Below are positions 29,046 through 29,421 of a stretch of 64,000 nt of DNA, one piece after another. Origin of the DNA: Podarcis gaigeae (lineage: Eukaryota); the NCBI GenBank assembly GCA_964106915.2, contig OZ066917.1; one strand, written 5' to 3'. The position numbers and the translations under genes were made by a program. Each line of letters opens with the position of its first letter. Position 1 is the stretch's first letter. The notes beneath the pieces are model-generated. The model was not told the DNA's origin. It was given only the letters and a program-made list of their open reading frames with translations, and made no database searches.

Positions 29046-29421
29046 ATAGTAGCTCCACAAAGCAATGATAAGAGCAAAAATGACAGAAACAGACATCTGC
29101 CAAATGCAGAGGCTCTGAGTTCAGCATTTCCTCCTTTTGGAATAGATGGCCTAGATTTTTAGGCCATCCAGTATGTAAAGCCACCATTTTAGTTGTTGAC
29201 TAAAATTCTAAAAAGACTTTGAAAAGCCTGGTCGCAGTCTCTCCTTGTGTTCTCTGACATGCTATTAATATTTAGATGACAGGCAAATACATTAGTCTTC
29301 TTCCAGGCCTCTGGATAACTGAACAATCCATGGCCTTTAAAACTGTTGGGGGAATTATTGTTTTCGATTGCTACTGTTATGTATTTTTTTGTTTCTATAT
29401 TGTTAACCACCCTGTGATCCT
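29046..29421 (+). pseudogene. Degenerate duplicate of TBC1D8 exon 8 (3' part) and start of intron 8, inside RPL31 intron 1
   Basis: Colinear with 12763-13121; translates [38 protein letters not shown] versus [41 protein letters not shown]. Confidence 0.9.

Follow-up and report, generated by a model that had tools for sequence, protein, structure and literature searches.

The window analyzed here is a 64,000-nt stretch of the Podarcis gaigeae genome (contig OZ066917.1), in which the genes TBC1D8 and RPL31 lie tail to tail. TBC1D8 is on the plus strand, with coding exons between positions 1230 and 24738, and RPL31 is on the minus strand. Exon mapping and contigs of relatives place RPL31 exon 2, which starts at the ATG, at 28896-29002 (minus strand), and the splice joint 29002-31524 (CT..AC) delimits RPL31 intron 1 at 29003-31523 (minus strand). 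Self-alignment of the window showed that 29046-29421 (376 bases, plus strand), inside this intron, is a copy of TBC1D8 12763-13121 (plus strand). The copy has the orientation of its source, is antisense to RPL31 and lies 16.3 kb from the source. The two gene identities and the antisense placement in RPL31 intron 1, which had been proposed from the letters alone (the sequence-only reading), were confirmed. Likely poly(A) signals were seen at 25171 for TBC1D8 (plus strand) and at 25449 for RPL31 (minus strand), with ∼280 nt between them; further plus-strand signals at 25991 and 26693 would give an antisense overlap with RPL31, as in human. A minus-strand coding stretch for poly-His/poly-Gln with a (TGC)19 repeat (38900-39199) belongs to a downstream gene that we take to be NPAS2.

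The copied exon is the sixth TBC1D8 coding exon within the window (12715-12885, plus strand, by exon mapping) and is presumably exon 8 of the human gene structure, the number used below. Its length of 171 nt and phase 0 at both ends agree with the earlier statement that it can be skipped in frame. The exon peptide is 98% identical to Podarcis lilfordi TBC1D8 and 61-82% identical to 11 other squamate proteins. The boundaries of exons 7 and 8 (11983-12004 and 12709-12715) look variable: a tandem CAG is present at the exon 8 acceptor, and in Rhineura and Varanus the protein contains additional residues (VLN) that match read-on beyond the exon 7 donor.

The match between copy and source is far above chance. 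A BLASTN self-search aligned 12763-13115 with 29046-29403 (E = 3.5e-57; 73.3% identity with gaps counted), and the local alignment score was 351 compared with at most 42 in 200 shuffles, in line with the colinearity noted in the sequence-only reading. Global alignment of 12763-13121 with 29046-29421 gave 68 differences in 343 aligned bases. The exon-derived part of the copy (29046-29170, plus strand), corresponding to the 3′ two-thirds of the exon, has 19 differences in 120 aligned bases. It is followed by the copied GTATGT splice donor (29171-29176, plus strand) and by unique TBC1D8 intron (29177-29267, plus strand; 13 differences in 84 bases). When aligned by codon, the exon part carries 18 substitutions in 114 bases, a 3-nt deletion and a frameshift with a stop after GLDF, matching the ∼18 exonic substitutions, in-frame 3-nt deletion and stop described before. 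Exon, donor and intron were copied unspliced. A processed retrocopy was rejected on this retention of donor and intron and on the absence of a poly(A) tail from the copy. Changes at the end of the exon part (29145-29168) make a 9-bp hairpin, GATGGCCTA / TAGGCCATC, of the kind that a quasi-palindrome template switch would leave. Since one relative (H, below) has 230 other letters at this place, the changes may also stem from the insertion or footprint of a mobile element.

The sequence-only reading further suggested that weaker similarity extends the copy to ∼29018. This extension is at chance level, since 9.0% of 18,274 window 42-mers score as high; under other gap costs 8-22% of 11,630 window 42-mers equal its score. 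The letters between the RPL31 pyrimidine tract and the copy are also unrelated in the relatives, which argues against it.

The LINE tail of the copy

Translation, alignment and folding identified the 5′-truncated end of a LINE, in sense orientation, in the TBC1D8 intron at 12979-13160 (plus strand). The translated tail resembles LINE ORF ends elsewhere in the window; we assume that the element is of L2 type. The rest of the copy (29268-29421, plus strand) derives from this LINE 3′ end and consists of a remnant of the ORF C-terminus, the 3′ UTR, and the 5′ arm and half the loop of a terminal stem-loop, as indicated by alignment, folding and high-copy depth. An intact LINE tail in the window (13978-14035) has a predicted 8-bp terminal stem-loop of −16.5 kcal/mol. 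The copy ends at 29421, half-way into this loop, and the 3′ arm and terminal repeats are absent. The source does run into a LINE 3′ tail whose end is missing from the copy, as had been stated, by both translation and contig depth (see below). The source itself is now without the 12 nt of the stem 5′ arm, which the copy still has; the 5′ arm of the source therefore existed when the copy was made.

The LINE-tail part is more diverged from its source (36 differences in 139 bases) than the other parts of the copy taken together (32 in 204; p = 0.027). A canonical L2-driven retrocopy was considered and rejected: the copy has a sense LINE tail at its 3′ end, but stops at 29421 short of a complete stem-loop and the 3′ repeats. 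The Rfam search of the 64 kb found no structured RNA family in the copy or in RPL31. Its sole match was a partial tRNA at 14446-14505 (36.8 bits), which is probably the head of a tRNA-derived SINE and resembles the 56890-56944 region. Lizard LINE tails were also searched for in metagenomes, with one match, which looks like an unrelated GC-rich contig.

Relatives, junctions and age

Four relatives (coded E, F, G and H) were compared over 28500-31600, from 23 runs listed, 20 of which contain part of the stretch. Two runs are DNA-type (F and G) and two are RNA-type; the RNA types are guesses, and the RNA contigs are unstranded. The copy is present in all four relatives, with the contig of E reaching only as far as 29290. 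In H the copy has a 14-nt duplication and two deletions (1 and 8 nt), and the 11 letters of 29160-29170, directly 5′ of the copied donor, are replaced by 230 others.

Many dispersed copies of the exon-like part would have made it a repeat. Copy number was estimated from contig depth in F and G, and dispersed copies were absent from both DNA-type runs at a threshold of at least 85% identity, below which copies would escape. The region 29020-29227 is near single-copy, with a depth of 67 in F compared with 50 for single-copy sequence, and 200-202 in G (one contig, 202). The LINE part is high-copy, at depths of 10,021 in F and 21,477 in G. A SINE or other dispersed repeat family was rejected because the non-LINE part is near single-copy at ≥85% identity.

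Comparison of the relatives revealed the state of the junctions. At 29045-29048, G has 33 extra letters and H has 38, ending in TCCTA (G) or TCTTA (H) and followed by ATAG of the copy; pieces of E and F across the left junction have ∼30 extra letters, their position within the piece not being displayed. The right junction reads GTGATCCT followed by AAT, and the word TCCTAAT thus spans both junctions in G. In the window, the right copy of this 7-nt, target-duplication-like word is at 29418-29424 (plus strand), its first 4 nt being common with the source, and a remnant (AAT) of the left copy, recognized from the relatives' contigs, is at 29045-29047 (plus strand). The word is perfect in G, retained in six of seven letters in H and mostly deleted in this genome. 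The earlier statement that no target-site duplication is visible therefore holds for the present allele but not for G, where TCCTAAT flanks both ends. If the word is the original target, microhomology with the source amounts to 4 nt (3′ junction) and 2 nt (5′ junction). A word of at least 7 nt arose in 0.25% of 20,000 trials with random flanks, in 0.6% when the left flank alone was random and in 0.5% of 4,000 trials with 2-nt slack, in a post hoc test of a word that is perfect in one (G) of the two relatives whose letters are displayed (G and H), with the allele state read from filled sites only. Because TCCTAAT abuts the cut end, the truncation of the LINE looks original and not a later loss.

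The distance of 43 nt between the copy and the RPL31 acceptor, also pointed out before, is correct for this genome but not as the original state. It is likely derived through a later deletion in this genome's lineage, since the relatives have ∼30-38 more letters there. Elsewhere in intron 1, a GC-rich element with a palindromic end (29556-29886), related to 22657-23251, is skipped in F, G and H and is a recent insertion in this lineage. The spliced RPL31 exon 1-exon 2 joint (29002-31524) was found in both DNA-type runs, which suggests processed RPL31 pseudogenes in these lizards. The end of RPL31 intron 2 (28500-28939) shows 5 substitutions in 440 bases in G vs. ∼4.6% in intron 1, and 10 in 350 in F; the low divergence in G may reflect introgression or chance.

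The copy preserves an older state of the exon. The copy, Rhineura and Phrynosoma read SND..NDRN, whereas the present source reads SNN..NDSSS, so that ancestral D, R and N codons are kept in the copy. The TBC1D8 RNA contig of H, on which the dating of the source codon changes solely relies, reads SENDKSS at the same place, in a loose end. The N-to-S change is common to H and this genome and the copy keeps the ancestral N; the change therefore post-dates the copy. The corrected copy-source distance is 0.23 overall, 0.17 for the unique intron and 0.32 for the LINE part, compared with 0.068 between this genome and H, which would make the event ∼2.5-4.7 times as deep as the split from H. By these distances, the duplication is old. 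With calibrations of 18.6 and 37.55 My (PMC8760935), and on the assumption, a guess from distance, that F and G belong to Podarcis and H to another Lacertini genus, the event would date very roughly to 70-180 My. Crown Lacertidae are placed at 56-58 My (PMC2719621), and the estimated age, very roughly, would exceed this.

Decay of the copy and the antisense proposal

It was proposed in the sequence-only reading that RPL31 pre-mRNA, complementary to exon 8 and its donor, could affect exon 8 splicing. RPL31 intron RNA would pair in trans with exon 8 and donor, tuning inclusion or editing, and the copy would have been kept for this role. The predicted duplex of copy RNA with source, donor included, is strong in absolute terms (−390 kcal/mol), although a mirror control reaches −379 kcal/mol. 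Other points are consistent with such a role: the exon can be skipped in frame, the copy persists in 4/4 relatives, its non-LINE parts are less diverged from the source than the LINE part (p = 0.027, as above), and the exon-derived part in H is nominally less diverged (4 substitutions in 115 bases, p = 0.23). However, the longest perfect run between copy and source is only 16 nt (21 nt with G-U pairs), and transitions between the two show no G-U bias (24 wobble-compatible vs. 21 pair-breaking, p = 0.77). The copy did not track later changes in the source, shows no excess conservation, and in H is split before the donor.

Substitution densities in the copy resemble those of the surrounding intron. 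Copy-bearing pieces have 24 substitutions in 489 bases vs. 73 in 1588 for the rest of RPL31 intron 1 in G (p = 0.81), 19 in 570 vs. 72 in 1521 in F (p = 0.19), and 30 in 496 vs. 72 in 1075 in H (p = 0.66), these being per-piece counts of low power that leave aside two intron-2 pieces (G 5/440, F 10/350), pieces with exons or repeats and every piece from E, with 110-190 nt of flank in the copy pieces and shared branches among the three relatives. The copy shows no sign of constraint and appears to be decaying without function. Given the missing wobble bias, the missing tracking, the intron-like divergence and the split before the donor in H, we found no support for an effect on exon 8 splicing, and we consider a maintained antisense role very unlikely indeed. 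The importance of the locus would rise if RPL31 intron RNA did affect TBC1D8 splicing.

The RNA-type runs bear on the same subject. A contig of H contains the exon 8-exon 9 junction, so inclusion of exon 8 occurs; skipping is compatible with this observation. Both RNA-type runs have contigs that lead from RPL31 exon 2 into the copy, which may represent pre-mRNA, DNA carry-over or graph joining, and these were not counted as evidence for stable RPL31 intron RNA. The copy was not seen as a spliced exon among the 15 splice joints listed, of 38, in the relatives' contigs. A protein search with the frame through the junction returned one match among three candidates, only the antisense of RPL31 exon 2.

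Origin of the insert and comparison with known systems

Probably, a single local DNA-templated insertion gave rise to the copy, which would now be neutral; FoSTeS and MMBIR are related local template-switch mechanisms. Beyond what was observed directly (the homology, the junction letters, the presence in relatives and the decay pattern), the following course of events is proposed. A staggered break or stalled fork would have occurred in the germline at the word TCCTAAT in RPL31 intron 1. A DNA end would have jumped into the TBC1D8 exon 16 kb away on a 2-nt match (AT), and 376 nt would have been copied from that template. Four matching nucleotides (TCCT) within the loop of the old LINE hairpin would then have allowed the end to return, and the target word would have been copied a second time. 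A later deletion of ∼30-38 nt in this lineage would have taken away most of the left word, leaving the insert at its present 43 nt from the acceptor, and the copy would have drifted without function afterwards.

A nearby template (16.3 kb), the same orientation and a retained intron, as found here, are features of DNA-templated copying. The sequence-only reading had given a LINE-mediated and a DNA-level origin equal plausibility; a DNA template is favored by the distance of 16 kb and by the absence of the end of the LINE tail. The junction geometry fits a DNA template switch and target-primed reverse transcription alike, and it counts against the DNA template that a LINE insertion would give the same geometry. 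The copy also ends within ∼40 nt of a sense LINE 3′ end, which for a random template would be a ∼0.5% event, an estimate that rests on about 7-10 LINE 3′ ends in 64 kb. A hairpin can stall DNA polymerase, which eases this coincidence. Under the DNA-template model, the excess divergence of the LINE part (36/139 vs. 32/204) would have to reflect faster decay of the repeat together with constraint on the source.

Alternatively, an L2-type reverse transcriptase may have captured TBC1D8 pre-mRNA, binding the stem-loop, priming within the loop on the 4-nt match, copying back through the intron into exon 8 and joining the 5′ end by 2-nt microhomology. We regard this as a less likely alternative. The copy has the LINE tail at its 3′ end, in sense orientation relative to TBC1D8, and the stem 5′ arm was still present in the source when the copy arose. 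The short duplication begins with the 3′ microhomology and finishes with the 5′ one, the order that target-primed reverse transcription gives. However, L2 normally starts at the 3′ arm or terminal repeats, and these are missing from the copy. Target duplications of L2 are most often 3-5 bp long, with 5′ microhomology a common feature (PMC4245944), and L2 proteins recognize and need the 3′ stem-loop (PMC4176376); L2 terminal repeats are discussed in PMC3747384. Distance is the second difficulty. A diffusing particle would land <20 kb from its source in only ∼3 in 100,000 cases (0.003%; an estimate for a 1.5-Gb genome), and a 16-kb distance would require RNA still tethered at the locus. Human TBC1D8 transcripts can extend into RPL31 (PMC3983147), and such read-through would favor capture of this kind. 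The specific version, in which a stringent L2-type reverse transcriptase caught the nascent pre-mRNA via the old intronic stem-loop, primed in the loop and wrote into the adjoining gene while the RNA was tethered, seems doubtful.

An L2 tail could also have been resident in RPL31 intron 1 already, a break there being repaired by one-sided invasion of the TBC1D8 tail that dragged along the upstream intron and exon. This would account for the proximity of copy and source, for the end at a LINE and for the stronger divergence of the LINE part (p = 0.027). In that case, the resident tail must have been 3′-truncated beforehand. Moreover, the whole unit has the duplicated word immediately next to each of its ends, and the intron-LINE junction is exactly common to copy and source. 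These points make such a repair quite unlikely.

As best explained, by local templated insertion, the copy would be an ordinary genomic fossil, of use as a dated marker in lacertid phylogeny, and would exemplify such an insertion cleanly, with readable junctions. If tethered capture were true, it would mean that LINE tails can drive the local movement of exons and splice sites from one gene to its neighbor in reptile genomes. Should many inserts of host intron with a loop-cut LINE tail lie near their sources, they would point to a new route of local exon shuffling by stringent LINEs. No literature on this TBC1D8-RPL31 copy was found among the matches listed, with subscription journals outside the coverage.

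Several known systems resemble the lizard copy in part. Templated sequence insertions of classes 1 and 2, as described in PMC5110952, are likewise a few hundred bases from unique sequence, with junction microhomology (class 2) or a target duplication (class 1). Their templates are distant, and class 1 has poly(A) and L1 target sites. The lizard copy is an old, fixed insert from a local template; it has no poly(A) and stops within a LINE loop. The local template-switch "cycles" and local n-jumps in PMC7025897 share a nearby segment, return to the host site and partial re-replication; those are somatic cancer events, whereas the lizard copy would have arisen long ago in the germline, with re-copying limited to 7 nt. 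L2-clade insertions and LINE-tailed SINEs (PMC4245944, PMC4176376, and PMC3747384) likewise combine host sequence with a LINE tail at its 3′ side and show a short duplication and 5′ microhomology. Unlike these, the copy is without the stem 3′ arm and terminal repeats, has no dispersed family at ≥85% identity and lies near its source. Finally, the natural antisense overlap of human TBC1D8 and RPL31 (PMC3983147) involves the same convergent pair, with antisense potential. The human overlap is a perfect cis match of the 3′ ends; in the lizard, the match is internal and 80% identical, and pairing would be possible only in trans.
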